DNA of 64,000 nucleotides, from positions 96,598,001-96,662,000 of the forward strand of contig CM059431.1 in assembly GCA_030390025.1 (NCBI GenBank), in the 5' to 3' direction. A model generated the notes under the pieces. It was not told where the DNA came from and ran no database searches. It saw only the letters and a program-made list of their open reading frames with translations. Source of the stretch: Squalus acanthias (taxonomy: Eukaryota). Shown here one piece after another: positions 8,701-54,660 of this stretch. Position numbers and translations under genes: made by a program. Position 1 is the stretch's first letter. Each line of letters begins with the position of its first letter.

Positions 8701-9119
8701 AGTAATCTCAGGATTGCTACCAGTGCCACATGCTAGTCAGAGTAGAAATAGAAGGATATTTCAGATGAATATGTGGCTAGAGGAATGGTGCAAGGGGGAG
8801 GGATTCAAATTCCTGGGACATTGAAAACGGTTCTGGGGGAGGTGGGACCAGTACAAACTGGACGGTTTGCAGCTGGGCGGGACCTGGACCGATGTCCTAG
8901 GGGCAGTGTTTGCTAGTGCTGTTGGGGAGGGTTTAAACTAAAATTACAGGGGGTTGGGAACCTGTGCAGGGAGACAGAGGAAAGGGAAGCATGGATAGAA
9001 ACAAAAGACAGGAAGGAGAAAAGTAAAAGTGGAAGGCAGAGAAATCAAGGGTGTAAATCAAACAGGGCCACAGTAAATAATTATTCTAAAATTGTTAAAA
9101 AATCAAGCCTGAAGGCTTT

Positions 9120-10006
9120 GGGGTAAAAATTCAGTTGGTTGCGCCTCCCGTTAGCGCCTTAAGAGGGCGCTAATGGGGCGCAAAGCCGCTAACGCCCGGG
9201 CGCAGCGATGTTTGCGCCGCTCGGGAACTTAACTAGAGATTGTGCGGCGGCGCTAAACTTTACCGCTGCGACCACCTGCGCGCGCAGATTGTGACGTCAT
9301 TCCATGGTGCAACGCCCTTGTGGCGCCCCGGAGCGGAAATTGAGTGGCGCCCCCTGCCTTACCGCCTGGCGCATCCAACGACCAGAAGACTGGAACGCTA
9401 TCAATCGCTGTGGGGCTGGGGGGGGCGCTATTTAAAGGGGGCCTCTTCCTGCCTTTTATTGTTGGTGGCATTTTTGAACTACGCATTCTGAGAGAGAGAG
9501 GGAGAGACTTCTGGAGAGATTCAACGTTGTGTGAAGGAGTTTTGGGTACTGAGCAGCACTTTGCAGGTTCATTTTGATTTGCCATTCCTTGTATCGATTT
9601 AGCAGAGACTGTGGGAGCTGCACTCTGAGCTCTTTGCCTGGTACTCTCCATTGTTCTTTCCAGCACATTTGATGTGCAAGTCTCTCCAGGCCGAGAATCA
9701 AGGCTGCAATGAACAGGATGTGGATGGAAAGCAAGATTAACCATCCCCTTTAAGAACTGGCCATTGTGTGTGTGTTCCATTGCTGACTGACATTACATGA
9801 GCTTCGCCAGCGCTCTGAGTTAGCGCCTCACTCCTTGGCCTTTGCGCCTTAAGACAGGTGTGCAGCGCCTGATTTAGCGCTCCACTCACCTCCCGGGGCG
9901 GTAAAAGTGAAGTTTCCAGTCAGTGCCGATAATTAGCGCCAGGCGCTAATATTTGCATCCAGACGATATTTGCGCCCCAAATGGGGCGCGACCTAATTTT
10001 TCCCCC
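9120..10006. mobile_element. PIF/Harbinger-type MITE (887 bp) inserted in the CR1 endonuclease
   Basis: TIRs GGGGTAAAAATT / GGGGGAAAAATT and 3-bp TSD TTT; removal restores LKALCLNARS. Confidence 0.8.
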
Positions 10007-10655
10007 TTTGTGTCTTAATGCGAGGAGCATTCATAATAAGGTGGATGAATTAGCTGCGCAAATAGATGTAAACGGATATGATATAATTGGGATTACGGAG
10101 ACATGGCTCCAGGATGACCAAGTCTGGGAATTCAACATCCAGGGGTATTCAATATTCAGGAAGGACAGGAAAAAAGGAAAAGGAGATGGGGTAGCATTGC
10201 TGGTTAAAGAGGAGATTAACACAATAGTAAGGAAGGATATTAGCTCTGATGATGTGGAATCTGTATGGGCAGAGCTGAGAAATACCAAGGGGCAGAAAAC
10301 GTTAGTGGGAGTTGTATACAGACCCCCAAACAGTAATGCTGAGGTTGAGGATGGCAGTAAATGGGAAATTAGAGACGCGTGCAATAAGGGCACAGCAATT
10401 ATCATGGGTGACTTTAATCTACATACAGATTGGGCTAATCAAATTAGTAACAATACTGTGGAGGAGGAATTCCTAGAGTGTATACGGGATGGTTTCCTGG
10501 ACCAATATGTCGAGGAACCAACTAGAGATCAGGCCATCTTAGACTGGGTATTATGTAATGAGAAAGGATTAATTAGCAATCTTGTTGTGCGAGGCCCCTT
10601 GGGGAGGAGCGATCATAATATGATAGAATTCTTCATTAAAATGGAGAGTGAAGTA

Positions 10656-11055
10656 CAGGAAACTCTTTATTAACCGGCACCGACGGGACCGGCGTGGTGC
10701 CAGTTTATCGAAAGTACCGGATAACGGAGAGTTATATCTACCGAGGCTATTTTTAACAAAGAAAAATAAATAAATCAAGAAATGTGCAGTATACTTCCGA
10801 CAGCGCCAGGAGGCCGAGTAGTGGCACTTTTGAAAACTACCCCTACTGACTAAATCGGCGTTCGCGGACTCGGACTCGGGATCGGCAACATTGCCGGTTA
10901 TTTGAGAGGAGTTTTCGGAGTACTCGGCGTTCGCGGAGACTCGACTGCGACTCGGCAACATTGCCGGTTATTTGAGAGGAGTTTTCGGAAGATGATTTTT
11001 GCCGGTTAAGCGAGAATTCCGGATATTTGGGTGCCGGATAAACAAAAGTTTCCTG
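10656..11055. mobile_element. Tc1/mariner (Tigger/pogo-like) MITE, 400 bp
   Basis: TA TSD; 26-bp TIRs CAGGAAACTCTTTATTAACCGGCACC / CAGGAAACTTTTGTTTATCCGGCACC; removal restores CR1 MESEVVDSE as at 48255. Confidence 0.88.
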
Positions 11056-13469
11056 TAGTTGACTCAGAGACTAGGGTCCTGAATATAAATAAAGGAAACT
11101 ATGATGGTATGAGGCACGAGTTGGCTCGGATGGATTGGGGAACGTTACTTAAAGGGTTGACAGTGGATAGGCAATGGCAAACATTGAAAGATCGCATGGA
11201 TGAACTACAGAATTTGTTCATCCCTGTTCGGCATACAAATAAACAAAAAAGGTGACTCAACCGTGGCTAACAAGGGAAATTAGGGATAGCATAAGATCCA
11301 AGGAGAGGACATATAAATTGGCCAGAAAAAGCAGCAAACATGAGGATTGGGAGCAGTTTAGGATTCAGCAAAGGAGGACAAAGGGATTAATTAAGAGGGG
11401 GAAATAGATTATGAGAGTAAGCTTTCAGGGAACATAAAAACTGACTGTAAAAACTTGTATAGATATGTGAAGAGAAAAAGATTGGTGAAGTCAAGCGTAG
11501 GTCCCTTGCAGTCAGAATCAGGGGAAATTATAATGGGGAACAAAGAAATGGCTGACCAATTAAATACATACTTTGGTTCTGTCTTCACAAAGGAGGACAC
11601 AAATAACCTCCCAGAGATGTCGGGGAACATAGGGTTAAATGAGAGGGAGGAATTGAATGAAATCAGTATTTGTAGGGAAATGGTGTTAGGGAAATTGATG
11701 GGATTGAAGGCCGATAAATCCCCAGGGCCTGATAATCTACATCCTAGGGTACTTAAGGAAGTGGCCCTAGAAATAGTAGATGCATTGCTGGTCATCTTCC
11801 AAAATTCTATAGACTCTGGAACAGTTCCATTGGATTGGAGGGTAGCAAATGTAACCCCACTATTTGAAAAAGGTGGTAGAGAGAAAAAGGGGAATTATAG
11901 ACCGGTAAGTCTGACATCGGTAGTGGGGAAAATCCTAGAGTCCATTATAAAAGATGTAATAGCAGAGCACTTGGAAAACAGTGACAGGATCGGACAAAGT
12001 CAACATGGATTTACAAAAGGTAAATCATGCTTGACTAATCTACTGGAATTTTTTGAGGATGTAACTGGTAGAATGGATAAGGGAGAACCAGTGAATGTGG
12101 TGTATTTGGACTTTCAGAAGGCTTTCGATAAGGTCCCGCATAAGAGATTAGCGTGCAAAGTTAAAGCACACGGGATTGGGGGTAAGGTACTGTCTTGGAT
12201 AGAGAACTGGTTGGCAGACAGGAAGCAAAGAGTTGGAATAAACAGGTCTTTTTCCGAGTGGCAGGCAGTGACTAGTGGGGTACTGCAGTGATCGGTGCTA
12301 GGACCCCAGCTAGTCACAATAATCTAGATGACAGAACTAGATGTAATATCTCCAAGTTTGCAGACGACACAAAGCTGGGTGGGCGTGTGTGCTGTGAGGA
12401 GGATGCAGAGAAACTCCAGTATGATTTGGACAGGTTCGGTGATTGGGCAGATGCATGGCAGATGCAGTATTATGTGAATAAATGCGAGGTTATCCACTTC
12501 GGTGGCAAAAACAGGAAGACAGATTATTATCTGAACGGCAATAGATTGGGAAAAACGGAAGTGCAACGAGACCTGGGTGTCCTTGTGCACCAGTCGCTGA
12601 AGGTAAGCATGCAGGTGCAGCAGGCGGTTAAGAAGGCAAATGGTATGTTGGCCTTCATAGCGAGAGGATTCGAGTACAGGAGCAAGGATGTCTTGCTGCA
12701 GTTGTACAGGGCCTTGGTGAGACCACACCTTGAGTATTGTGTGCAGTTTTGGTCACCTTATCTGAGGAAGGATGTTCTTGCCATGGAGAGAGTGCAGCTG
12801 ATACCTGGGATGGCAGGAATGACGTATGAGGAGAGATTGGGTCGATTAGGCTTATATTCGCTAGAGTTTAGAAGAATGAGAGGGGATCTCATTGAAACTT
12901 ATAAAATTCTAACAGGACTAGACAGACTAGATGCAGGAAGGATGTTCCCGATGGCGGGGGAGTCCAGAACCAGGGGTCACAATCTAAGGATAAGGGGTAA
13001 GCCATTTCGGACTGAGATGAGGAGGAATTTCTTCACCCAGAGAGTGGTGAACCTGTGGAATTCTCTACCACAGAAGGCAGTTGAGGCCAATTCATTAAAT
13101 ATATTCAAGAAGGAGTTGGATATATTTCTTAAGGCAAAAGGGATCAAGGGATATGGGGAGAAAGCAGGGACAGGGTACTGAATTTGGATGATCAGCCATG
13201 ATCTCATTAAATGGTGGAACAGGCTCGAGGGGTCGAATGGCCTACTCCTGCTCCTATCTTCTATGTTTCTATGTTTACCAAGCTTCAGCACACCATAGAG
13301 CACCTTGTTGGGTAGTCTAGTATCAGGCATTCAGACTAAGTGACCAGTCAACTTAAACTGTGCCTTTACTATCATTGCCTCTACACTTGGCATTTTTGCT
13401 CTTTGGAGGTCCTAACTGTTCGGAATCTTGTACCGCCATCAAATTTTCATGAATTTTCTCTTCCACAGA

Positions 13470-13745
13470 GAAGAGCAACAGCAGCAATATCTTGGGAACA
13501 CCGTCACCTCCAAGTTCCCCTCCAAATCACACACCATCCCGATTAGTAATATATCGCCGTTCATTCATTGTCACTGGGTCACTATCCTGGAATTTCCTAC
13601 CTAACACCATAGTGGGAGCAGCTTCACCACACGGACTGCAGTGGTTCAGGGAGAAGGGTCACCAGCACCTTCTCAGGGCAACTAGGAATGAGCAGTAAAT
13701 GCCGGCCTTGCCAGTGTCACCCACATCCCAAAAACAAATAAAAAA
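13470..13745 (+). mobile_element. LINE 3' fragment (same family as 3995-4300)
   Basis: Sequence similarity within the window. Confidence 0.7.
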
Positions 13746-14267
13746 CAAATACTTTACTAAGAAAAATATGCATGTTAGTGTTTCTCTCTTTCAAAAGCTA
13801 CTTCCATGAGTGTGAAAAGTAAACAATTTATTAAGATAGCTTGATGGTCTGTCAGGGTATGGATGTAGGAATCCACAAAGCTCTGAATGCCCGAATCACA
13901 CATGATAACCTGCGATTCATACTTTTACAAGCTGGCTATTTGAAATCTGAGTTTAGCACTGTATGAATATGGGCAAAAAATAATGCTGTAAAACCAACCC
14001 AAGATCTGGTTAATTTTTCTATCTAGCTGTCACGTCTTTGTCACACTTTTGTGTCAACTTTTCACCATTATAAATGTTGACGTAGGAATTTATAATGGGT
14101 TTTACCCATGTAAACATGTCACCTGATGAAACAAACGGGCCACCTTCCTCCCAAAAATCACTCAAAATGCTCACTGAAAATGTTTTAGTTTGAAATTCTT
14201 TTCTCTCAGTAACTGTCACCCAAAATAAGGGAAAACCAAAATAATTTTTTAAAAAATTAAATATTAT

Positions 14268-14700
14268 GGGGGAGAACTTCGGTATCGCCCCGTTTGGGGC
14301 GCAATTATCGGCCGGGCGCAAAGTTTAGCACCTGGCGCTAATTATCGCCTCCGACTGCAAACTTGGCCTCTATCGCCCCTGGAGGTGATTTGAGCGCTAA
14401 ATCAGGCGCTACACACCTCTCTTAAGGTGCTAACGCCGAGGAGCGAGGCACTACCTCAGAGCGCTGGCGAAGCTCATGTGATGTCAGTCAGCAATGGAAC
14501 ACAAAAACACTGGCGCCGGCCAGTTCTTAAAGGGGAGGGTTGATCTTGCTCTCCAGCCACACCCTGCTCATTGCAGCCTTGAATCTCGGCCTGGAGAGAC
14601 CTGCACATCAATTCTGTTGGAAAGAACAATGGAGAGGCCCAGGGAAAGAGCTCAGAGTGCAGCCCCCATAGTCTCTTCTAAATCGATGCAAGGAAGGTCA
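14268..14700. mobile_element. Truncated copy of the 9120-10006 Harbinger-type MITE family in opposite orientation
   Basis: Matches the reverse complement of about 9580-10006; shared pseudo-ORF ERTME..R.RAQSAAP. Confidence 0.75.
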
Positions 14701-15144
14701 AATCAAAATGAAACTACATATTTTACAATAAACATAATTAACTTTATCCATTGAATTGTTTCTCTCATCTTTCAATATCTTTGTTAAAGTTAATAACTGT
14801 AGGCCTGAGCCTTGATATTTTCTCCCTAATTGGAGAGTTGAATTTGGATTGGGCAGTGTCGCTAATTTCCCATGATGCATTAGTACCAACCAGCTTTACT
14901 GATTAATATTTTTCTTTAGAAACAAATATGTTTGAAAAACAAGAGGACAAATTTCAAAAGCTTTATAGGTGACAATTAGAGAGTTTTTATATAAAAACAA
15001 AGCCCGTGTGTGAAAGAAATGAGCTGCTTTGATTACACAGCTGTTGTAGATTTTGTCTTGTGTTCTGTAAATTTCAGAAAATTATTTAGAGAGAGCGTGA
15101 GAGAGAAAAGAGAAAAAAGAAAGCTGGATGGGGAGAAAGCGTTT

Positions 15145-15223
15145 CAGCCTAGATCATGTTCTGGAGTGGGACTTGAAACCACAATCTTCTGACTCAGAGG
15201 AGAGAGTGCTCCCCACTGAGCTA
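15145..15223 (-). mobile_element. tRNA-derived SINE head (A box TAGCTCAGTGG, B box GGTTTCAAGTCC)
   Basis: Pol III boxes followed by CTAGGCTGA, which also precedes the Deu domain at 55560; no complete cloverleaf. Confidence 0.65.
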
Positions 15224-15442
15224 TGCTAACTTATTAACACTAACATATCATTTTATATATATTGTAGACTAAGGCATGTTATTTCATATACACACATAGC
15301 ATAAAACCTTGAGACAGAGAACTGAGAAAGCAAGGTGAAAAGATAGAAAGTGCAGAAACCCCCATCTACAATAATCGTGCTTTGCTTCATTATAGAATGA
15401 GTTTTTAAACCTTTGCTTCTCTCCAGCACAGCGTATACTTAC

Positions 15443-15514
15443 CTTTCAACTTCAGCCTCTGGATTCTCAAGCTCCATATAATTGTCTTTTAGCTGCAGGA
15501 ATGTGAAGCCAAGT
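15443..15514 (-). CDS. ATP11A: ATP11A coding exon (72 bp) LGFTFLQLKDNYMELENPEAEVER
   Basis: tcgcag|A CTT ... AG|gtaagt. Confidence 0.93.
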
Positions 15515-17200
15515 CTGCGAACAAAAAAACCCAAATCACTAAACATCTGGGGTATAGATGTTTCAGTAAGAGTAGGGAAGGTGGTAAGAAAGGTGGAGGA
15601 GTAGCATTGTTAATCAAGGATAGTTTAACAGCGGCAGAAAGGCAGTTCGAGGGGGATCTGCCGTCTGAGGTAATATGGGCTGAAGTTAGAAATAGGAAAG
15701 GAGCGGTCACGTTGTTAGGAGTTTTCTACAGGCCCCCAAATAGTAATAGAGATGTGGAGGAAGAAATTGCAAAGCAGATTATGAATAGGTGTGGAGGTCA
15801 CAGAGTAGTTGTCATGGGTGACTTCAACTTTCCAAATATTGATTGGAACCTTTTTCGGTCAAACAGTTCGGATGGGATAGTTTTTGCACAGTGTGTGCAG
15901 GAGGGTTTCCTGACACAATATGTGGATAGGCCGACAAGAGGTGGGGCCACATTGGATTTGGTACTGGGTAATGAACCGGGCCAAGTGTTTGATTTGTATG
16001 TGGGAGAGCACTTTGGAGATAGTGACCACAATTCGGTGACTTTCACTATTGCAATGGAGAGAGATAGGGCCATACGGCAGGGCAGGGTTTATAATTGGGG
16101 ATGGGGTAATTATGATGCGATTAGGCAAGAATTAGGGGAACAGAAACTATCAGGGAAAGGCACAAACGAAAAGTGGAGCTTTTTCATGGAGCAATTACTG
16201 CGTGTCCTTGATAGGTATGTCCCTGTCAGGCAGGGAGGAAATGGCCGAGTGAGAGAACCATGGTTCACAAAAGAGGTTGAATGTCTAGTCAAGAGGAAAA
16301 AGGAAGCCTATGTAAGGATGAGAAAACAAGGTTCAGTTGGGTCGATTGAGGGGTACAAGGTAGCAAGGAATGAGCTAAAAAAAGAGCTTAGGAGAGCGAG
16401 GAGGGGGCATGAGAAGTCCTTGGCGGGTCGGATCAAGGAAAACCCCAAGGCTTTTTACTCTTATGTGAGAAATAAAAGAATGACCAGGGTGAGGGTAGGG
16501 CCGGTCAAGGACAGTAGTGGGAACTTGTGCATGGAGTCAGAAGAGATAGGAGAGGTGATGAATGAATACTTTTCGTCAGTGTTCACCGAGGAGAGGGGCC
16601 ATGTTTTTGAGGATGAGAGTGTGATAAAGATGGATAGGCTGGAGGAGGTAGATGTTCTGAGGGAAGATGTTTTAGCAATTTTGAAGAACCTGAGGGTCGA
16701 TAAGTCCCCTGGGCCAGATGGGATATATCCTAGGATTCTTTGGGAGGCAAGGGAGGAGATTGCAGAGCCTTTGGCTTTGATCTTTGGGTCCTCACTGCCC
16801 ACGGGGATGGTGCCAGAGGACTGGAGAATGGCGAATGTTGTTCCTCTCTTCAAGAAAGGAAATAGGAATGACCCTGGTAATTATAGGCCGGTTAGTCTTA
16901 GTTCGGTGGTTGGTAAGATAATGGAAAAGGTCCTGAGGGATAGGATTTATGACCATTTGGAAAGATGCAACTTAATCCGGGATAGTCGACACGGATTCGT
17001 GAAGGGTAAGTCTTGCCTAACAAATTTGATTGAATTCTTTGAGGAGGTAACTAAGTGTGTAGATGAAGGTAGAGCAGTTGATGTCGTATACATGGATTTT
17101 AGTAAGGCGTTTGATAAGGTTCATGGTCGGCTCATGAAGAAAGTAAGGAGTTGTGGGATAGAGGGAAATTTGGCCGATTGGATAAGTAACTGGCTATCTC

Positions 17201-17328
17201 TATATATGCTTTGGCGATTCTGTATCTATTTACTTCACCTGAGGAAGGGGCAATCGATAGCTCCGAAAGCTTGTGATTTCAAATAAAACTGTTGGACTAT
17301 AACCTGGTGTTGTGCGACCTCTCAATTT
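17201..17328 (+). mobile_element. Penelope-like terminal-repeat fragment with hammerhead motif, inserted into CR1 RT
   Basis: 6-bp TSD TATCTC (17195-17200, 17329-17334); near-identical to the arm of 30970-31192. Confidence 0.8.
17235..17276 (+). ncRNA. Minimal type I hammerhead ribozyme motif
   Basis: tcac CUGAGGA a ggggc-loop-gcucc GAAA gc UU guga; stem I 4 bp, palindromic AGCU stem III. Confidence 0.65.
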
Positions 17329-18429
17329 TATCTCATAGAAGGCAGAGGGTGGTGGTGGATGGAAAATTTTCAGACTGGAGACCAGTTACCAGCGGTGTGC
17401 CACAAGGGTCGGTGCTGGGTCCTCTGCTGTTTGTGATTTTTATCAATGACTTGGAGGAGGGGACTGAAGGGTGGATCAGTAAATTTGCTGATGACACCAA
17501 GATTGGTGGAGTAGTGGATGAGGTGGAGGGCTGTTGTAGGCTGCAAAGAGACATTGATAGGATGCAGAGCTGGGCCGAAAAATGGCAGATGGAATTTAAC
17601 CCTGATAAGTGCAAGGTGATTCATTTTGGTAGGGCAAATTTGAATAAGGATTACAGGGTCAACGGCAGGGTTCTGAGGAACGTGGAGGAACAGAGGGATC
17701 TGGGGGTTCATATCCACAGATCTCTGAAGGTTGCCACTCAAGTGGATAGAGCAGTAAAGAAGGCCTATAGTGTGTTAGCGTTTATTAACAAGGGGTTTGA
17801 GTTTAAGAACCGTGAGGTTATGCTGCAACTGTACAGGACCTTGGTGAGACCACATTTGGAATATTGTGTGCAGTTCTGGTCACCTCACTATAGGAAGGAT
17901 GTGGAAGCATTGGAAAGAGTGCAAAGGAGATTTACCAGGATGCTGCCTGGTTTGGGGGGGAGGTCTTATGAGGAAAGATTGAGGGAGCTAGGGCTTTTCT
18001 CTTTAGAGCGGAGGAGGATGAGAGGCGACTTAATAGAGGTTTATAAGATGATGAGGGGGTTGATAGAGTGGATGTTCAGAGACTATTTCCTCGGGTGGAT
18101 GTAGCTGTTACAAGGGGGCATAACTATAAGGTGCATGGGGGGAGATATAGAATGGATGTCCGAGGTAGATTCTTTACTCAGAGAGTGGTTGGGGTGTGGA
18201 ATGGACTGCCTGCTGTGATAGTGGAGTCGGACACTTTAGGAACTTTCAAGCGGTTATTGGATAAGCACATGGAGCACACCAGAATGATAGGGAGTGGGAT
18301 AGCTTGATCTTGGTTTCGGACAATGCTCGGCACAACATCGAGGTCCGAAGGGCCTGTACTGTGCTGTACTGTTCTATGTTCTATGTTCTATCCAACACAA
18401 AAATAATCAATCAGTGATCAATCCAGCAT

Positions 18430-20436: not shown

Positions 20437-23178
20437 TTTGGAGCGGTAGTTTCAGGGCCTAGTTTGGAGCGGTAGTTTCAGGGCCTAGTTTGGAGAGGTA
20501 GTTTCAGGGCCTAGTTTGGAGAGGTAGTTTCAGGGCCTAGTTTGGAGCGGTAGTTTCAGGGCCTAGTTTGGAGCGGTAGTTTCAGGGCCTAGTTTGGAGC
20601 GGTAGTTTCAGGGCCTAGTTTGGAGCGGTAGTTTCAGGGCCTAGTTTGGAGCGGTAGTTTCAGGGCCTAGTTTGGAGAGGTAGTTTCAGGGCCTAGTTTG
20701 GAGCGGTAGTTTCAGGGCCTAGTTTGGAGCGGTAGTTTCAGGGCCTAGTTTGGAGAGGTAGTTTCAGGGCCTAGTTTGGAGCGGTAGTTTCAGGGCCTAG
20801 TTTGGAGAGGTAGTTTCAGGGCCTAGTTTGGAGCGGTAGTTTCAGGGCCTAGTTTGGAGCGGTAGTTTCAGGGCCTAGTTTGGAGCGGTAGTTTCAGGGC
20901 CTAGTTTGGAGCGGTAGTTTCAGGGCCTAGTTTGGAGCGGTAGTTTCAGGGCCTAGTTTGGAGCGGTAGTTTCAGGACCTAGTTTGGAGCGGTAGTTTCA
21001 GGGCCTAGTTTGGAGCGGTAGTTTCAGGGCCTAGTTTGGAGCGGAAGTTTCAGGGCCTAGTTTGGAGCGGTAGTTTCAGGGCCTAGTTTGGAGCGGTAGT
21101 TTCAGGGTCTAGTTTGGAGCGGTAGTTTCAGGGTCTAGTTTGGAGCGGTAGTTTCAGGGCCTAGTTTGGAGCGGTAGTTTCAGGGCCTAGTTTGGAGCGG
21201 TAGTTTCAGGGTCTAGTTTGGAGAGGTAGTTTCAGGGCCTAGTTTGGAGCGGTAGTTTCAGGGCCTAGTTTGGAGAGGTAGTTTCAGGGCCTAGTTTGGA
21301 GAGGTAGTTTCAGGGCCTAGTTTGGAGAGGTAGTTTCAGGGCCTAGTTTGGAGCGGTAGTTTCAGGGTCTAGTTTGGAGAGGTAGTTTCAGGGTCTAGTT
21401 TGGAGCGGTAGTTTCAGGGCCTAGTTTGGAGAGGTAGTTTCAGGGTCTAGTTTGGAGCGGTAGTTTCAGGGCCTAGTTTGGAGAGGTAGTTTCAGGGCCT
21501 AGTTTGGAGCGGTAGTTTCAGGGCCTAGTTTGGAGCGGTAGTTTCAGGGCCTAGTTTGGAGCGGTAGTTTCAGGGTCTAGTTTGGAGAGATAGTTTCAGG
21601 GCCTAGTTTGGAGAGATAGTTTCAGGGCCTAGTTTGGAGAGGTAGTTTCAGGGCCTAGTTTGGAGCGGTAGTTTCAGGGTCTAGTTTGGAGCGGTAGTTT
21701 CAGGGTCTAGTTTGGAGCGGTAGTTTCAGGGCCTAGTTTGGAGCGGTAGTTTCAGGACCTAGTTTGGAGCGGTAGTTTCAGGGCCTAGTTTGGAGCGGTA
21801 GTTTCAGGGTCTAGTTTGGAGCGGTAGTTTCAGGGCCTATTTTGGAGCGGTAGTTTCAGGGCCTAGTTTGGAGCGGTAGTTTCAGGGCCTAGTTTGGAGC
21901 GGTAGTTTCAGGGTCTAGTTTGGAGCGGTAGTTTCAGGGCCTAGTTTGGAGAGGTAGTTTCAGGGTCTAGTTTGGAGCGGTAGTTTCAGGGCCTAGTTTG
22001 GAGCGGTAGTTTCAGGGCCTAGTTTGGAGCGGTAGTTTCAGGGCCTAGTTTGGAGCGGTAGTTTCAGGGCCTAGTTTGGAGCGGTAGTTTCAGGGTCTAG
22101 TTTGGAGCGGTAGTTTCAGGGCCTAGTTTGGAGCGGTAGTTTCAGGGCCTAGTTTGGAGAGGTAGTTTCAGGGTCTAGTTTGGAGAGGTAGTTTCAGGGT
22201 CTAGTTTGGAGCGGTAGTTTCAGGGCCTAGTTTGGAGAGGTAGTTTCAGGGTCTAGTTTGGAGAGGTAGTTTCAGGGCCTAGTTTGGAGCGGTAGTTTCA
22301 GGGCCTAGTTTGGAGCGGTAGTTTCAGGGCCTAGTTTGGAGCGGTAGTTTCAGGGTCTAGTTTGGAGCGGTAGTTTCAGGGCCTAGTTTGGAGCGGTAGT
22401 TTCAGGGCCTAGTTTGGAGAGGTAGTTTCAGGGTCTAGTTTGGAGAGGTAGTTTCAGGGTCTAGTTTGGAGCGGTAGTTTCAGGGCCTAGTTTGGAGAGG
22501 TAGTTTCAGGGTCTAGTTTGGAGAGGTAGTTTCAGGGCCTAGTTTGGAGCGGTAGTTTCAGGGCCTAGTTTGGAGCGGTAGTTTCAGGGCCTAGTTTGGA
22601 GAGGTAGTTTCAGGGCCTAGTTTGGAGCGGTAGTTTCAGGGCCTAGTTTGGAGCGGTAGTTTCAGGGTCTCGTTTGGAGCGGTAGTTTCAGGGCCTAGTT
22701 TGGAGAGGTAGTTTCAGGGTCTAGTTTGGAGCGGTAGTTTCAGGGCCTAGTTTGGAGCGGTAGTTTCAGGGCCTAGTTTGGAGCGGTAGTTTCAGGGTCT
22801 AGTTTGGAGCAGTAGTTTCAGGGCCTAGTTTGGAGCGGTAGTTTCAGGGCCTAGTTTGGAGAGGTAGTTTCAGGGTCTAGTTTGGAGAGGTAGTTTCAGG
22901 GTCTAGTTTGGAGCGGTAGTTTTGGGGCCTAGTTTGGAGAGGTAGTTTCAGGGTCTAGTTTGGAGAGGTAGTTTCAGGGCCTAGTTTGGAGCGGTAGTTT
23001 CAGGGCCTAGTTTGGAGCGGTAGTTTCAGGGCCTAGTTTGGAGCGGTAGTTTCAGGGCCTAGTTTGGAGAGGTAGTTTCAGGGTCTAGTTTGGAGCGGTA
23101 GTTTCAGGGCCTAGTTTGGAGCGTTAGTTTCAGGGCCTAGTTTGGAGCGGTAGTTTCAGGGCCTAGTTTGGAGAGATA
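20437..23178. repeat. Tandem array of the 26-bp unit TAGTTTGGAGCGGTAGTTTCAGGGCC, about 105 copies; about 2.5 more copies at 24900-24963
   Basis: Direct inspection; variants mainly GAGCG/GAGAG and GGGCC/GGGTC. Confidence 0.98.
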
Positions 23179-24899: not shown

Positions 24900-25317
24900 G
24901 TAGTTTCAGGTCCTAGTTTGGAGAGGTAGTTTCAGGGCCTAGTTTGGAGAGGTAGTTTCAGGCTGTAGGACAAGGGGGACGGGCCATTCCCGAGCACGCA
25001 GAACCTGTAACCTTCTGACAAGCAGCAACAGTGGGGGTCTCTCGCCACCTGTGAGTCTCTAGAAATTGGCCCCATTCGTCCTTTTGCAGGAACCACGGGT
25101 AGACAGCTCAAAGAGAAAATGGCTCTGTTAAGAAATCCTAAAGTTTACTGTCTTAGTGCTGACCTAGCCACTGCTGGAATTTGATCAGGAGAAAGAATGA
25201 GTTTTTCCCTCAAGACATTTGGATTTCTTCAGATACTAACTAGTCTCAGGGTTGATGTAGACTTGTACATAGAACATGACTGGGCCTTGGCTGGTGTGAT
25301 GGGTTAAATATCACTGG

Positions 25318-29576: not shown

Positions 29577-30169
29577 CACACCCGGGTACGAGCTCTCCCG
29601 ACACCCGGGTACGAGCTCTCCCGACACTCGGGTACGAGCTCTCCCGACACACCCGGGTACGAGCTCTCCCGACACACCCGGGTACGAGCTCTCCCGACAC
29701 ACCCGGGTACGAGCTCTCCCGACACACCCGGGTACGAGCTCTCCCGACACACCCGGGTACGAGCTCTCCCGACACACCCGGGTACGAGCTCTCCCGACAC
29801 ACCCGGGTACGAGCTCTCCCGACACACCCGGGTACGAGCTCTCCCGACACACCCGGGTACGAGCTCTCCCGACACACCCGGGTACGAGCTCTCCCGACAC
29901 ACCCGGGTACGAGCTCTCCCGACACACCCGGGTACGAGCTCTCCCGACACACCCGGGTACGAGCTCTCCCGACACACCCGGGTACGAGCTCTCCCGACAC
30001 ACCCGGGTACGAGCTCTCCCGACACACCCGGGTACGAGCTCTCCCGACACACCCGGGTACGAGCTCTCCCGACACACCCGGGTACGAGCTCTCCCGACAC
30101 ACCCGGGTACGAGCTCTCCCGACACACCCGGGTACGAGCTCTCCCGACACACCCGGGTACGAGCTCTCC
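29577..30169. repeat. 25-bp minisatellite CACACCCGGGTACGAGCTCTCCCGA, about 24 nearly perfect copies
   Basis: Direct inspection. Confidence 0.97.
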
Positions 30170-30500: not shown

Positions 30501-30969
30501 ACAGTTTTAAACCACAAGGAATTCTTCATTTTATCTTTGGATGAACTTGTGACTTGGCCGAGACACTGGGAAGTTTAAAGTTTCATTGTTGACAGTTCCT
30601 TTGTTTTAGTTTGACAGCTGGGAGCTAGAGTGTAAACTGACCCAGTGTCTGTGAGAGCTGTATATTAATGACAAATTAAATTAGCGCGGCTAACTGCATT
30701 GTTAAAAGAATTAATTGGTTTCTGAGTCATAAATCATACACAAGCATCTTGATTGGGACACAAATCTAATTAAGTCCGATGCTGTTTGGCTAAGCTTTGT
30801 TCTTTGAAGTTGTTTACATCGCAGTTCCTTCTGTCCCTAGTCAGTTACTGCTGCAGCTAATTCACGTTTCACTGTTGCTGCTCAGATGTCAAAGGAAACG
30901 AGGCTGTGCTGGTGTTGTTTGGTTTCATTTAACTGTGCTGCTATAAATGTAAGTCTTTCTTTCTAAATG

Positions 30970-31192
30970 AGAAGTCGCACAACACCAGGTTATAGTCCAA
31001 CAGTTTTATTTAAAATTACGAGCTTTCGGAGCGCTGCTCCTTCTTCAGGTACAGGTACAGTGAGCCTGTACCTGAAGAAGGAGCAGAGCTCCGAAAGCTC
31101 GTAATTTTAAATAAAACTGTTGGACTATAACCTGGTGTTGTGCGACTTCTCATTTTTGTCCACCCCAGTCCAACACCGGCATCTCCGCATCA
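30970..31192. mobile_element. 223-bp fold-back Penelope-like mini-element
   Basis: 91-bp inverted arms (30965-31055 / 31065-31155, 1 mismatch, 9-nt loop), 37-bp unpaired tail, 13-bp TSD TTCTTTCTAAATG (30957-30969, 31193-31205). Confidence 0.85.
31069..31103 (+). ncRNA. Minimal hammerhead ribozyme motif (mirror copy on the minus strand at 31017-31051)
   Basis: uac CUGAAGA a ggagc-aga-gcucc GAAA gc UC gua. Confidence 0.65.
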
Positions 31193-31464
31193 TTCTTTCT
31201 AAATGGGTAGGGGGCAATGTTCCTGCTAAGCTGAGCAGTCGTGCGGTCATCCACAAGGTCCCACGTGTGCCGCTTACTGGCTTTAATATTGTAGATACCG
31301 GCAGTTGCAAAAATTTGAATGGGCCGCGCATTGGGGGAGGCAGGCCACACAGGAAGCAGCGTGGTTTATGGGGGACATTGGTTGGGGGTTACTAAGGGCT
31401 CCATGGAGACAGCTCTCTAAGACTTGGCAAAGTAGTAAATGGTAAGCAGGATAATGGCAGACAT

Positions 31465-43792: not shown

Positions 43793-44100
43793 CTGGAATA
43801 AAGTTAAAAATTATTGAGGAAATAAAGCCATAAAAAAAATTGCAATTTTTAGATGACTATAAACAGATTCGTAGGCCTCAGGCCAGAGGAGCTCTTCAGC
43901 CAGGATGAGCTTCACCTAAACAAAGGCAGATCACTTTCACTCACAGACAGTGTCTGTACAGCAATAGGGGACGAGCTAAACTAGTCAGGCAGGGGAGGGC
44001 CAGTTCTCTAGCAAATGCGGCAGGAAGAGCAAGGCTCCAGAAGGTATATTAAGGAGACGGGGGGGGGGGAGGGTCTATAGTGCAGATAGGAGAGAGGGGA

Positions 44101-45156
44101 ATAACAACAGAAAACGCTGGAAAAACTCGGCAGGCGAGGCAGCATCCGTGGAGAGAGAAACAGAGTTAACGTTTCAGGTCGAAGACCTTTCATCAGAACT
44201 GGAAATAGCAGGAAATGAAATAGATTTAAGGCAAGGATAAAGCTGGGAAAAGGGGGAGGGGATGAAAGAACAAAAGGAGAGATTAAGAGACATTAAGCGA
44301 CATTAAGAGATGATCAAGGCAAGAGGTGGTGTTAATGTGACAGGTTGAGGCTAAAAGAAGTGTGAAATGCACTGGCAGAATGAAGGACAGCTGCCAGCTT
44401 CTAGGAGGGGAAAAAAAAGGTGGGGGGGCAAACAAAAGGGTGGATGAAAAAATAAAATATAAATGTGATTGGGGCTGAGGTTATGATCTAAAATTGTTGA
44501 ACTCGATAGAGTCCAGAGGGCTGTAGCGTGCCTAAACAAAAGATGAGGTGCTGTTCCTCGAGCTTACGCTGCGCCTGTCGCCTGTCACTTTAATTCACCG
44601 CTTCACTCTCACTCTGACCTCACCGTCCTCGGCCTATTACACTGTTCCACGGAAGCGCAGCGTAAGCTCGAGGAACAGCACCTCATCTTTCGTTTAGGCA
44701 CGCTACAGCCCTCTGGACTCAATATCGAGTTCAACAATTTTAGATCATAACCTCAGCCCCAATCACATTTATATTTTATTTTTTCATCCACCCTTTTGTT
44801 TGCCTCCCCCCGCCTCTTTTTTTCCCTCCTAGAAGCTGGCAGCTGTCCTTCATTCTGCCAGTGCATTTCACACTTCTTTTAGCCTCAACCTGTCACATTA
44901 ACACCACCTCTTGCCTTGATCATCTCTTAATGTCTCTTAATCTCTCCTTTTGTTCTTTCATCCCCTCCCCCTTTTCCCAGCTTTATACTTGCCTTAAATC
45001 TATTTCATTTCCTGCTATTTCCAGTTCTGACGAAAGGTCTTCGACCTGAAACGTTAACTCTGTTTCTCTCTCCACGGATGCTGCCTCGCCTGCTGAGTTT
45101 TTCCAGCGTTTTCTGTTGTTATTTCGGATTTCCAGCATCTGCAGTATTTTGCTATC
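44101..45156 (+). mobile_element. Fold-back Penelope-like element with inverted terminal repeats and a GIY-YIG C-terminal remnant (44574-44750)
   Basis: About 470-bp inverted arms (44100-44574 / 44655-45123); 15-bp TSD ATAGGAGAGAGGGGA; peptide PVACHFNSPLHSHSDLTVLGLLHCSTEAQRKLEEQHLIFRLGTLQPSGLNIEFNNFRS*. Confidence 0.9.
45023..45059 (+). ncRNA. Minimal hammerhead ribozyme motif (mirror copy on the minus strand at 44164-44200 with core CUGAUGA)
   Basis: aguu CUGACGA a agguc-uuc-gaccu GAAA cg UU aacu; palindromic ACGU stem III. Confidence 0.7.
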
Positions 45157-45379
45157 ATAGGAGAGAGGGGACATGGAGAGATAGGCCACCAGACTTGGGG
45201 GAGACAGGCCACCCCAAGGTGCTGTTCCTGTCGGTTTGAAAGAATTCCCAATTTTCTTGTGCCAATTTAGCAGGTTCATAATTTAAATATTTGCTATACA
45301 GGAATATTTAATAAATATTAAATGCAGATCTGAAAACAGACATTAAATATTTAAGGAGGATAAACTGGATTCCACTTAC

Positions 45380-47734: not shown

Positions 47735-47888
47735 CTGAAGGAAAGAACGTAAATCTGTAAACATCTCTCTCACATTCAAATCCTGAGACACGAGTTCCAT
47801 CCAGCAATGTCCTTAACTATGTTGCTGCACAGTGGAATATTCAGTCACTAGCACAGCACTTGGGTAATTAGCTGAACACAACACAAAC

Positions 47889-50537
47889 AGAGAAATAACA
47901 AAGGGCAGAAAACGTTAGCGGGAGTGATATATAGACCTCCAAACAGTAATGCGGAGGTTGGGGATGGCATTAAAAGGGAAATTAGAGAAGCGTGCAATAA
48001 GGGCACAGCAGTCATCATGGGTGACTTTAATCTACATATAGATTGGGCTAACCAAATTAGTAACAATACTGTGGAGGAGGAATTCCTGGAGTGTTTACGG
48101 GATGGTTTCCTGGACCAATATGTCAAGGAACCAACCAGAGATCAGGCCATCTTCGACTGGGTATTATGCAATGAGAAAGGATTAATTAGCAATCTTGTTG
48201 TGCGAGGCCCCTTGGGGCGGAGCAATCATAATATGATAGAATTCTTCATTAGGATGGAGAGTGAAGTAGTTGACTCAGAGACTAGGGTCCTGAATTTAAA
48301 TAAAGGAAACTACGATGGTATGAGGTGCGAGTTGGGTAGGATTGATTGGGGAATGTCACTCAAAGGGTTGACGGTGGATAGGCAATGGCAAACATTCAAA
48401 GACCGCATGGACGAACTACAGAATTTATTCATCCCAGTTTGGCATAAGAATAAAACAAAAACGGTGACTCAACCATGGCTAACAAGGGAAATTAGGGATA
48501 GCATAAGATCCAAGGAGAGGGCATATAAATTGGCCAGAAAAAGCAGTAACCCTGAGGATTGGGAGCAGTTTAAGATTCAACAAAGGAGGACAAAGGGATT
48601 CATTAAGAAGGGGAAAATAGAATACGAGAGTAAGCTTGCAGGGAACATAAAAACTGACTGTAAAAGCTTTTATAGATATGTGAAGAGAAAAAGATTAGTG
48701 AAATCAAGCATAGGTCCCTTGCAGTCAGAATCAGGGGAACTTATAATGGGGAACAAAGAAAAGTCAGACCAATTAAATACATATTTTGGTTCTGTCTTCA
48801 CAAAGGAGGACACAAATAACCTCCCAGAGATGTTGGGGAACATAGGATCTGATGAAAGGGAGGAACTGAAAGAAATCAGTAGTTGTAGGGAAATGGTGTT
48901 AGGAAAATTGAAGGCCGATAAATCCCCAGGGCCGGATAATCTACATCCTAGGGTACTTAAAGAAGTGGCCCTAGAAATAGCAGATGCATTGCTGATCATC
49001 TTCCAACATTCAATGGAATCTGGAACAGTACCCATGGATTGGAGGGTAGCTAATGTTACCCCACTATTCAAAAAGGGTGGTAGAGAGAAAACGGGGAATT
49101 ACAGACCGGTAAGCCTGACATCGCTGGTGGGGAAAAATGCTAGTGTCCATTATAAAAGATGTAATAGCTGAGCACTTGGAAAACAGTGATAGGATCGGAC
49201 AAAGTCAACATGGATTTACAAAAGGTAAATCATGCTTGACTAATCTACTGGAATTTTTTGAGGATGTAACTGGTAAAATAGATAAGGGAGAACCAGTGGA
49301 TGTGGTGTATTTGGACTTCCAAAAGGCTTTTGATAAGGTCCCGCATAAGAGATTAGCGTGTAAAGTTAAGGCACATGGGATTGGGGGCAAGGTATTGACT
49401 TGGATAGAGAACTGGTTGGCAGACAGAAAGCAAAGAGTTGGAATAAACGGGTCTTTTTCCGAGTGGCAGGCAGTGACTAGTGGGGTACCGCAGGGATCGG
49501 TCCTTGGACCCCAGCTATTCACAATATATATTAATGATCTAGACAAGGGAACTAGATGTAATATCTCCAAGTTTGCAGACGACACAAAGCTGGGTGGGCG
49601 TGTGTGCTGTGAGGAGGATGCTGAGAAACTCCAGGATGATTTGGACAGGTTGGATGATTGGGCAGAAGCATGGCAGATGCGATATAACGTAGATAAATGC
49701 GAGGTTATCCACTTTGGTGTCAAAAACAGGAAGGCAGATTATTATCTGAATGGCAATAGATTGGGAGAAGGGGAAGTGCAACGAGACCTGGGTGTCCTTG
49801 TGCACCAGTCGCTGAAGGTAAGCATGCAGGTGCAGCAGGCGGTTAAGAAGGCAAATGGTATGTTGGCCTTCATAGCGAGAGGGTTTGAGTACAGGAACAA
49901 GGATGTCTTGCTGCAGTTGTACAGGGCCTTGGTGAGACCACACCTTGAGTACTGTGTGCAGTTTTGGTCGCCTTATCTGAGGAAGGATGTTCTTGCCATG
50001 GAAGGAGTTCAGCGAAGATTCACAAGGCTGATACCTGGGATGGCAGGAATGACGTATGAAGAGAGATTTGGTCGATTGGGCTTATACTCGCTGGAGTTTA
50101 GAAGAATGAGAGAGGATCTCATTGAAACTTATAAAATTCTGACAGGACAGGACAGGACAGGACAGGACAGGACAGGACAAACTAGATGCAGGAAGGATGT
50201 TCCCGATGGTCGGGGAGTCCAGAACCAGGGGTCACAGTCTAAGGATAAGGGGTAAGCCATTTAGGACAAAAATGAGGAGGAATTTCTTCACCCAGAGAGT
50301 GGTGAACCTGTGGAATTCTCTGCCACAGAAGGCAGTCGAGACCAATTCATTAAATATATTCAAGAAGGAGTTGGATATATTTCTTAAGGCTAAAGGGATC
50401 AAGGGATATGGGGAGAAAGCAGGGACAGGGTACTGAATTTGGATGATCAGCCATGATCGCATTGAATGGCGGAGCAGGCTAGAGGGGCCGAATGGCCTAC
50501 TCCTGCTCCTATCTTCTATGATTCTATGATTCTATGA
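47889..50537 (+). mobile_element. 5'-truncated young CR1 (same subfamily as 7625-13274)
   Basis: ORFs 47924..49171, 49137..50255 and 50197..50436; (ATTCTATG)n tail. Confidence 0.93.
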
Positions 50538-52891: not shown

Positions 52892-54660
52892 GGGACAGGA
52901 GGAATTAATAATGGGGAACGGGGAAATGGCAGAGACCCTGAACAAATATTTTGTATCTGTCTTCACGGTAGAAGACACTAACAACATCCCAATAATGGAC
53001 AATCAAGGGGCCACAGGGAGGGGGAAACTAAAGACAATCACTATCACTAAGGAAAAAGTACTTGGTAAAATAATGGGACTAAAAGACGACAAGTCCCCTG
53101 GACCAGATGGCCTGCATCCCAGGGTCTTAAAAGAAGTGGCTGCAGAGATAGTGGATGCATTGGTTGCAATGTACCAAAATTCCCTGGACTCTGGAGAGGT
53201 CCCACCCGATTGGAAAACCGCAAATGTAACACCCCTATCTAAGAAAGGAGGGAGACAGAAAGCAGGAAACTATAGACTAGTTAGCCTAACATCTGTCGTT
53301 GGGAAAATGCTGGAGTCCTTCATTATGGAAGCAGTAGCAGGGCATTTTGAAAATCATTATGCAGTCAAACAGAGTCAGCATGGTTTTATGAAAGGGAAAT
53401 CATGTTTAACAAATTTGCTGGAGTTCTTTGAGGATGTTATGAGCAGGGTGGATAAAGGGTGAGCCAGTAGATGTGGTGTATTTGGATTTCCAGAAGGCAT
53501 TCGATAAAGTGCCACATAAAAGGTTACTGCATAAGATAAGAGCTCACGGAGTTGGGGGTAATATATTAGCATGGATAGAGAATTGGCTAACTAACAGAAA
53601 GCAGAGAGTCGGGATAAATGGGTCATTTTCCAGTTGGCAAACGGTAACTAGTGGGGTGCCACAGGGATCGGTGCTGGGGCCTCAACTATTTACTATCTAC
53701 AATAATGACTTGGATGAAGGGACTGAGTGTAATGTAGCCATGTTTGCAGATGATACAAAGATGGGTGGGAAAGCAAGTTGTGCAGAGGACTCAAAGAATC
53801 TGCAGAGGGATATAGACAGGCTAAGTGAGTTGGCAAACATTTGGCAGATGGAGTATAATGTGGGAAAGTGCATGTTATCCACTTTGGCAGGAAAAATAAA
53901 AAAGCAAATTATTATTTAAATGGAGAGAGATTACAAAATGCTACAGTTCAGAGGGACCTGGGGGTCCTTGTGCATGAAACACAAAAAGTTAGCATGCAGG
54001 TGCAGCAAGTATTCAAAATGGCAAATGGAATGTTGGCCTTTATTGCAAAGGGGTTGGAGTATAAAAGCAGGGAAGTCCTGCTAAAACTGTACAGGGTATT
54101 GGTGAGACCACACCTTGAGTACTGCGTACAGTTTTGGTCTCCTTATTTAAGGAAGGATATACTTGCATTGGTGGCAGTTCAGAGACGATTCACACGGTTG
54201 ATTCCTGAGGTGAGGGGGTTGACTTATGAAGAAAGGTTGAGCCTATACCCATTGGAATTTAGAAGGATGAGAGGTGATCTTATTGAAACATATAAGATAC
54301 TGAGGGGGCTCGACAAGGTAGATGCAGAGAGGATGTTTCCCCTCGTGGGGAAATCTCGAACTCGGGGCCATAGTTGCAGAATAAAGGGTCGCCCTTTTAG
54401 AACTGAGATGAGGAAGAATTTCTTCTCTCAGAGGGTCATAAATCTATGGAATTCTCTGCCCCAGAGAGCCGTGGAGGCTGGGTCATTAAATATATTTAAG
54501 GTGGAGATAGACAGATTTTTACAAGATAAGGGAGTGAAGGGTTATGGGGAGCGGGCTGGGAAGTGGCTTTGAGCCCAAGATCAGCCATGATCTTATTGAA
54601 TGGCGGAGCAGGCTCGAGGTGCCAAGTGGCCTATTCCTGATCCTATTTCTTATGTTCTTA
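52892..54660 (+). mobile_element. 5'-truncated CR1
   Basis: ORFs 52911..53462, 53473..53919 and 53868..54572. Confidence 0.92.

Follow-up and report, generated by a model that had tools for sequence, protein, structure and literature searches.

A 223-nt palindromic insertion with opposed hammerhead motifs in Squalus acanthias: a probable head-to-head pair of truncated Penelope-like element ends

The question raised by this locus is how a non-coding insertion of only 223 nt came to be a near-perfect palindrome with a hammerhead motif in each arm. The insertion lies in a 64,000-nucleotide stretch of the Squalus acanthias genome (GCA_030390025.1, contig CM059431.1, positions 96,598,001 to 96,662,000 of the forward strand), which is referred to here as the window. 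The initial annotation proposed either that a Penelope-like element (PLE) had undergone extreme truncation and inversion or that the locus belongs to a non-autonomous, ribozyme-bearing family. The first of these options is supported by the published insertion signature of PLEs, by the abundance of single ends, and by the variability of the joints between inverted copies. We consider it highly likely that the locus is one young insertion of an endonuclease-bearing PLE in which two 5'-truncated 3' ends (pLTRs) lie head to head. The hammerheads came along with the pLTR as passengers.

As a single locus the insertion is of minor importance, PLE ends being very numerous in this genome. Its value is that of a clean specimen, in which a perfect target-site duplication (TSD), the two sites at which reverse transcription starts, and a recognizable microhomology for priming are found together with only 223 bp of inserted DNA. 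It is the smallest possible record of the reaction that makes inverted copies and one-sided tails, the origin of which is still stated to be unresolved in the available portions of PMC8557442 and PMC11167929.

Structure of the insertion and its relatives in the window

In the window sequence, the 223 nt between the TSDs form a near-perfect inverted repeat. The two 91-nt arms (30965-31055 and 31065-31155) are separated by 9 nt and are 99% alike, the sole mismatch being located at 31033/31087, and a short tandem hexamer is found at the centre of the palindrome. The 13-bp TSD is perfect and its composition (A or T at 10 of 13 positions) marks an AT-rich target; the left arm starts inside the left TSD, the last 5 nt of which it shares. 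The tail is found only on the right side, has an A+C content of 68%, and is predicted to fold back onto the end of the arm as a stem-loop. Stop codons were found in all six frames, and no open frame extends across the insert. These features are collected in Table 1. The arms, the single mismatch, the loop, the tail, the TSD, and its overlap with the left arm had all been described in the initial annotation, together with the lack of coding sequence, and each was recovered when recomputed. With arms that are 99% alike and a perfect TSD, the insertion is young.

Table 1. Features of the focal insertion and of related copies in the window
Feature	Position	Strand	Basis or remark
Left TSD, 13 bp	30957..30969	+	identical to 31193-31205
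Overlap of TSD and left arm, 5 nt	30965..30969	+	sequence; putative primer/template microhomology at inner PLE 3' end (start site 1)
Left copy: 5'-truncated PLE end, inverted, untailed, 9-nt loop included	30965..31064	-	sequence; X5 record 10
Minimal type I hammerhead motif, left copy	31017..31051	-	core from 31048; predicted cut 31020/31019
9-nt loop, the excess length of the left copy over the right	31056..31064	.	sequence; X2 depth at 31062-31064
Head-to-head junction	about 31064/31065	.	sequence
Right copy: 5'-truncated PLE end with tail, 128 nt	31065..31192	+	sequence; contigs
Minimal type I hammerhead motif, right copy	31069..31103	+	core 31072; predicted cut 31100/31101
AATAAA hexamer, 3' of right hammerhead	31110..31115	+	sequence; putative polyadenylation role
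37-nt tail, the stretch between two reverse-transcription start sites of the PLE	31156..31192	+	sequence; loose-end piles; available text of PMC11167929
Right TSD, 13 bp	31193..31205	+	sequence
Sister copy of the focal PLE end, single, non-inverted, untailed	17201..17328	+	85% identity over 96 nt
Second PLE family, like build	44086..45171	.	15-bp TSD at 44086-44100 and 45157-45171
GIY-YIG-type ORF, C-terminal 61 codons, in 44-kb element	44565..44750	+	homology

Two related structures were found in the window. The sister copy at 17.2 kb is flanked by a 6-bp TSD (17195-17200 and 17329-17334), ends at the inner 3' end, and interrupts a LINE ORF, the frame of which it breaks. Its hammerhead (17239) differs from the copy at 31072 by a compensatory change of U-A to C-G in helix I, by a longer loop II (8 nt), and by U at H17. 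The AATAAA hexamer of the focal insert is mirrored on the other arm and recurs in this sister copy.

The element at 44 kb was described in the initial annotation as a member of a different sequence family with the same architecture, and both parts of this statement hold. No BLAST similarity was found between the 223-nt insert and the 44-kb element, which possesses a TSD, inverted arms of approximately 470 bp, a one-sided tail of 33 nt, and two minimal hammerhead motifs, whose cores lie at 44196 (-) and 45027 (+), whose palindrome is ACGU, and whose cleavage site is UU. The tailed right copy of the 44-kb element is 80 nt longer than its partner, whereas in the focal insert the left copy is the longer one, by 9 nt. 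Nine of 18 candidates were found to be homologs of its 61-codon ORF end, the best being a skate protein (E 6e-18). A GIY-YIG match was obtained just upstream in two of the six homologs scanned, both weak and below the Pfam cut-off (E 0.008 in the skate protein), and Pfam returned nothing for the 61-residue ORF end itself. Since the 44-kb element shares the build of the focal insert and keeps a GIY-YIG-type ORF end, this build accompanies truncated PLEs in this genome. The RT/GIY-YIG ORF of a PLE is absent from the focal copy, and a GIY-YIG-type ORF end is found only in the like-built 44-kb element; the assignment of the focal family to the PLEs is an indirect one.

The window is also rich in LINE reading frames and tandem repeats. 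Several LINE copies that are related to one another and have long frames for endonuclease and RT are located at 1-433, 11395-13181, 47876-50255, and 52893-54572; one pair of these, in opposite orientation, is 99% identical over 433 nt, which suggests recent activity. Inverted repeats of approximately 445 bp (9562-10006 and 14268-14718) are 84-89% alike, have GC-rich inner parts, and enclose 4.2 kb that includes a LINE. They may belong to a large non-autonomous DNA transposon that was later interrupted by an insertion, and no hammerhead motif was found in them. A satellite at 20437-23173 contains 105 copies of a 26-bp unit with 96% matches, with a short related array at 24900-24962. Approximately 800 bp to the left of the focal insert, 24 copies of a 25-bp unit (29577-30169) are repeated with 99% matches, and several of their frames are open. 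On the right, the flank of the target (31240-31360) is itself an older repeat, for which a depth of 8,000-16,000 was recorded at 31305-31346 in both DNA runs.

Depth, ends, and joints in public contigs

Contigs from four of the 24 listed public runs (X2, X5, X6, and X7) were aligned to positions 30780-31380 at 85% likeness. Runs X6 and X7 are perhaps RNA, which is a guess; X5 represents approximately 55% of its run, leaves part of the left flank without cover, and is uninformative on presence or absence there. Summed contig depth is not copy number, as the tool itself warns, and the depths in X2 are to be read with this in mind: 18.6 in the left flank, a climb from 5' to 3' along the right arm of 0.66, 1.8, 3.4, and 5.1 million, 4.6 million in the tail, and 291.5 in the loop (31062-31064). 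The loop depth was 304 and 86 in X5, 20.4 in X6, and 6.4 in X7. The ratio of arm to flank is approximately 270,000 (approximately 9,000 if each base was counted 31 times), and the loop is approximately 10,000 times shallower than the arm and tail. The ratio of loop to flank is at most approximately 16. Every contig that touches the loop positions counts toward their depth; among these contigs is X2 record 2, which is a different palindrome, as are plain longer ends such as X5 record 10. The depth gradient and the unlike flanks reveal graded 5' truncation in a dispersed, abundant family, with subfamily divergence adding to the gradient.

Loose ends with unlike flanks were found behind position 31193 in 162, 130, 10, and 24 contigs of X2, X5, X6, and X7, respectively, and behind position 31157 in 44 contigs of X5, with loose ends behind 31162 as well. 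The two piles are two preferred 3' ends of the family, with the tail (31193) and without it (31157). In three runs the loose ends behind the tail have a consensus that opens with identical letters, at low agreement (0.36-0.40), and that reads ATG together with the last bases of the tail; the ORF of the parent element may start at the end of the tail.

The head-to-head joints, of which 15 were listed out of 100, all connect an antisense to a sense pLTR, and all 15 do so at different points. Among the 30 ends of these 15 joints, 22 distinct 5' ends were found. Two hammerhead cores are kept in none of the 15, one core in three, and no full core in 12; the short sides of the listed joints measure only 21-32 letters, any joint may belong to a longer element, and joints in which both copies reach further upstream than the focal insert cannot show as skips, which biases the count of double cores low. 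Another double-core palindrome, with a different loop, is represented by X2 record 2. The 12 listed joints that are present in X2 have depths of 39-242, or 2-13 times that of the flank, and nine of the 15 recur in both DNA runs; from this depth and recurrence it follows that several copies have some junctions in common. The exact focal junction was spanned by none of the contig pieces listed and rests on the window sequence.

The loop can be assigned from the contigs. Record 10 of X5 runs through the left arm and all of the loop (30974-31064) in one ungapped piece with seven differences, and the X5 consensus of loose ends upstream of the core, compared by eye, matches five of seven loop-derived letters to the left copy and two of seven to the right copy. 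Together these identify the loop as upstream sequence of a left copy that is 9 nt longer. At sites where the family is split, the two arms carry the same letters, the window letter accounting for approximately 35% of the X2 depth at 31012 and approximately 44% at 31017. This agreement points to a single template, or a single source locus, for both arms.

The insertion-free allele may also be represented. Record 1 of X2 matches the left flank to position 30969 and then continues with 17 letters that are not those of the arm, and record 3 opens with base 31193, where the right TSD starts. Words of 31 letters are what we take to be the assembly word size behind the X2 contigs. The sum of 13 and 17 is 30, and an overlap of this length would be expected if neighbouring contigs were assembled from such words; the two records were read on this ground as the allele without the insertion. 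Their geometry suggests an empty allele with one copy of the target. A 164-nt contig of X6 (organism B) matches the left flank (30784-30947) with one difference, and a comparison with this related organism could provide a date for the insertion. A scan of viral, genome, and metagenome collections with an arm-end pattern returned no loci, and ten loci obtained with a tail pattern were discarded as chance matches, each matching only 18-23 nt around the pattern.

Hammerhead motifs and predicted folding

Read along its own strand, each motif consists of a 3-bp helix I, CUGAAGA, one extra A, a 5-bp stem II, GAAA, GC, and UC. Stem II is opened by a G-C pair, the GAAA of the right copy is located at 31093-31096, and a palindromic AGCU is present. 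The initial annotation had placed CUGAAGA, a stem II, GAAA, and GCUC in each arm, as is found, and had left out the extra A. Its description of two opposed hammerheads is correct insofar as each strand carries one minimal motif; neither strand carries two, the partner of each sense hammerhead being its antisense. In the part of PMC4209133 that deals with them, the minimal hammerheads of PLEs are described with an extra nucleotide after position 9, a G10.1-C11.1 pair, a palindromic 15.2-16.2 dinucleotide, and no helix III, and the extra A is a hallmark of this class. The full set of PLE minimal-hammerhead features (CUGANGA, extra nucleotide, G-C, GAAA, palindromic dinucleotide, UH, and helix I) is found in the focal insert. 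A descriptor of the minimal hammerhead returned five sites in the window, all of them in PLE ends (two in the 223-nt insert, two in the 44-kb element, and one at 17239), and none in 100 first-order Markov controls of equal length. At the gathering score, Rfam gave no matches in the window. At E values up to 10 there were 22 matches, with no hammerhead family among them; these weak matches were dropped, being mostly to microRNA hairpin models, which fit any long stem. The motifs are candidate ribozymes, assigned on motif, covariation, and context.

The RNA of the whole insert is predicted to fold as a rod of -162 kcal/mol (z = -27), and none of 200 shuffled sequences was as stable. When the hammerhead fold was enforced, the predicted cost was 63 kcal/mol for the plus strand and 52 kcal/mol for the minus strand of the whole element, versus 3 kcal/mol for the right copy alone. 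The antisense arm precedes the sense motif on either strand; because it would be transcribed first, the motif is expected to be trapped in the rod on both. In a read-through transcript the near-perfect 91-bp hairpin should silence the ribozyme. Because each strand can be cut at a single site only, the release of a monomer is impossible, and the two motifs, being on different strands, cannot form the dimer in cis. A single minimal motif was reported to be without cleavage, and dimers to cleave at a low level, in the available text of PMC4209133. The insert probably has no role as a ribozyme today. The copy was most likely dead on arrival and is at most a source of double-stranded RNA. If such stubs are transcribed within host introns, they would provide near-perfect hairpins and possible sources of small RNA.

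There is a hint of something more. Four of the 30 junction ends, from the 15 of 100 joints that were listed, coincide with the predicted cleavage position (31101-31102), and these come from two related joints. The clustering has a P value of 0.004 if the 30 ends are independent and of 0.47 if the two related joints are merged. It is unlikely that stubs are sometimes re-copied as units, giving small families that share a junction, and that the minimal hammerhead cuts in vivo. If this were true, the ends at 31101-31102 would be a trace, left in the genome, of templates that the ribozyme had cut, which was unseen in RNA-seq of the lizard element.

Origin of the insertion and comparison with known systems

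The published signature of PLE insertions is an inverted, 5'-truncated copy with a tail of 30-40 bp at one end (PMC8557442; also PMC3846280 and PMC8969392, in the portions available), and inverted pLTRs with TSDs of 8-10 bp are among the rotifer examples of PMC3846280. The focal insert shows insertion features of endonuclease-bearing PLEs: an inverted 5'-truncated copy, a one-sided tail in the 30-40 bp range, and a short TSD at an AT-rich target. Biochemical precedent is available for the reaction. According to the accessible sections of PMC11167929, the purified Poseidon protein of a lizard cleaves AT-rich DNA on both strands and extends both, its reverse transcription starts at two sites in an AC-rich stem-loop so that the tail is the stretch between them, and the ribozyme was dispensable. 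By analogy, the GIY-YIG endonuclease of a PLE would have cut both strands of the AT-rich target 13 nt apart, giving rise to the TSD. The 3' end of the bottom strand would have primed at the outer start site, yielding the copy with the 37-nt tail, and the 3' end of the top strand would have primed at the inner start site through the 5-nt microhomology, yielding the untailed inverted copy. Both cDNAs would have halted after approximately 100-130 nt and been joined 5' to 5'. The joining could have been direct, mediated by a very short microhomology, or could have followed fold-back self-copying of one cDNA. Priming at both ends is proposed here from one locus and from in vitro work on the lizard element.

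Other explanations were weighed against this one. A palindromic stub made once could later have been re-copied via RNA by a PLE enzyme acting in trans, and the locus would then belong to a small non-autonomous family. The loop and flank depths in X2 (291.5 and 18.6) would allow up to approximately 16 copies, the listed joints lie at 2-13 times the flank depth with nine of 15 in both DNA runs, the stub retains its tail, a pLTR is sufficient in cis for mobilisation in trans in the portion of PMC3846280 available, and non-autonomous PLEs exist according to the available text of PMC8557442. However, the loop depth also counts the other palindrome and the longer plain ends, the overlap of the left arm with its own TSD is what would be expected if the copy was primed at this locus, a perfect hairpin of 91 bp is a poor template for which a promoter is not evident, and shared joints could also arise from microhomology hot spots or from duplicated flanking repeats. 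We regard a small family as unlikely. The discrete ribozyme-bearing family of the initial annotation is almost fully refuted by the criterion that the annotation itself had set, since all 15 of the listed joints differ and the loop is so much shallower than the arm and tail; no more than approximately 16 copies are allowed. The test of junction sharing that the annotation had recommended, when run on the public contigs, speaks against an abundant mini-family (loop depth 291.5 versus 0.66-5.1 million in the arm and tail). A MITE or other DNA transposon was also rejected: the inverted repeats make up the whole element, they are not terminal on the right, where the tail lies, and the family occurs as single ends as well.

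A retrozyme or viroid-like unit, transcribed from both strands and self-cleaving to give a rod-like circular RNA, would account for motifs with intact cores in both polarities and for the stable rod fold, and animal non-LTR retrozymes have been proposed to derive from PLE ends (bioRxiv 10.64898/2026.07.22.740005, in the part available). Against it stand the single cleavage site per strand, from which no unit is released, the antisense arm that is made first and traps the motif on both strands, the absence of a tandem array or multimer at the locus, the loss of the full core in 12 of the 15 sibling joints listed, and the reported behavior of minimal hammerheads, uncleaved as monomers and poorly cleaved as dimers (PMC4209133, available text). 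This reading is highly improbable. Hammerheads of both polarities are indeed present, as the annotation had remarked, but they follow automatically from the inversion of an end that bears one; with one cut per strand and the ribozymes buried, the likeness to retrozymes and viroids is formal only. A PLE origin with a different chemistry, namely self-priming on an antisense template or rearrangement after a simple insertion, is very improbable as well. Head-to-head PLE junctions are explained as products of self-priming in the available portion of PMC3846280, and near-identical arms with a central tandem hexamer would suit fold-back copying. Self-priming alone leaves the one-sided tail and the 5-nt TSD overlap at the untailed end unexplained, and the clean TSD around the entire unit favors one event over a later rearrangement. 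To a fold-back chimera of the assembly we assign next to no probability: the junction is unspanned among the contig pieces listed and the X2 flank contig stops short of the arm, but an artefact would not produce a perfect 13-bp TSD, an asymmetric loop, one mismatch, and a one-sided tail at the main 3' end of the family, and sibling head-to-head joints occur in two DNA runs.

The favored origin, two truncated PLE ends primed from the two sides of one target, can be compared with several known systems. In the twin priming of LINE-1, both target strands prime cDNA synthesis and an inversion results inside the TSD; each of the two pieces derives from its own stretch of one RNA, with no overlap between the stretches. 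The focal insert shares with LINE-1 the inversion within the TSD and would share the priming from both target strands. Unlike the LINE-1 pieces, both focal copies represent the same sequence, and two pLTRs, two RNAs, or a fold-back are needed for this reason. An LTR retrozyme has direct LTRs, a type III hammerhead, and a 4-bp TSD, whereas the focal insert has inverted arms, a minimal type I motif, and a 13-bp TSD. The animal non-LTR retrozymes are likewise short, non-coding, furnished with a type I hammerhead, and tied to PLEs (PMC7229834; bioRxiv 10.64898/2026.07.22.740005). As described in the available parts of these sources, they are head-to-tail units with a hammerhead on the same strand in each and a circular RNA, whereas the focal insert is one head-to-head pair with one motif per strand.

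The Schistosoma hammerheads in the available text of PMC4209133 include pairs of motifs on opposite strands 100-700 bp apart, with a stem II of 7-8 bp and a helix I of 4-5 bp; the focal cores are only approximately 24 nt apart, and the corresponding helices are 5 and 3 bp. The Poseidon element PAc of Anolis carolinensis (Frangieh et al. 2024, PMC11167929) shares with the focal family two 3' ends separated by the length of the tail, an AC-rich stem-loop, an AT-rich target, and a hammerhead upstream of the tail. In the sections of that paper that bear on its structure, the ORF of PAc begins at stem II and includes the tail, whereas no frame is open across the focal pLTR and its tail may, as a hint, end at a start codon.

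A search of the open literature listed no paper on short palindromes with two hammerheads in sharks; PLE consensus sequences in supplementary files may already include the focal family. The closest counterparts are the complex PLE insertions of Craig et al. (2021, PMC8557442) and Arkhipova et al. (2013, PMC3846280), which in the portions available share the head-to-head copy, the one-sided tail, the short TSD, and the strong 5' truncation. The focal copies differ from these in measuring only 100 and 128 nt and in lacking an ORF, and the focal TSD of 13 bp differs from the 8-10 bp of the rotifer examples. The arrangement is already known, and the insert is a further example of it among the PLEs.
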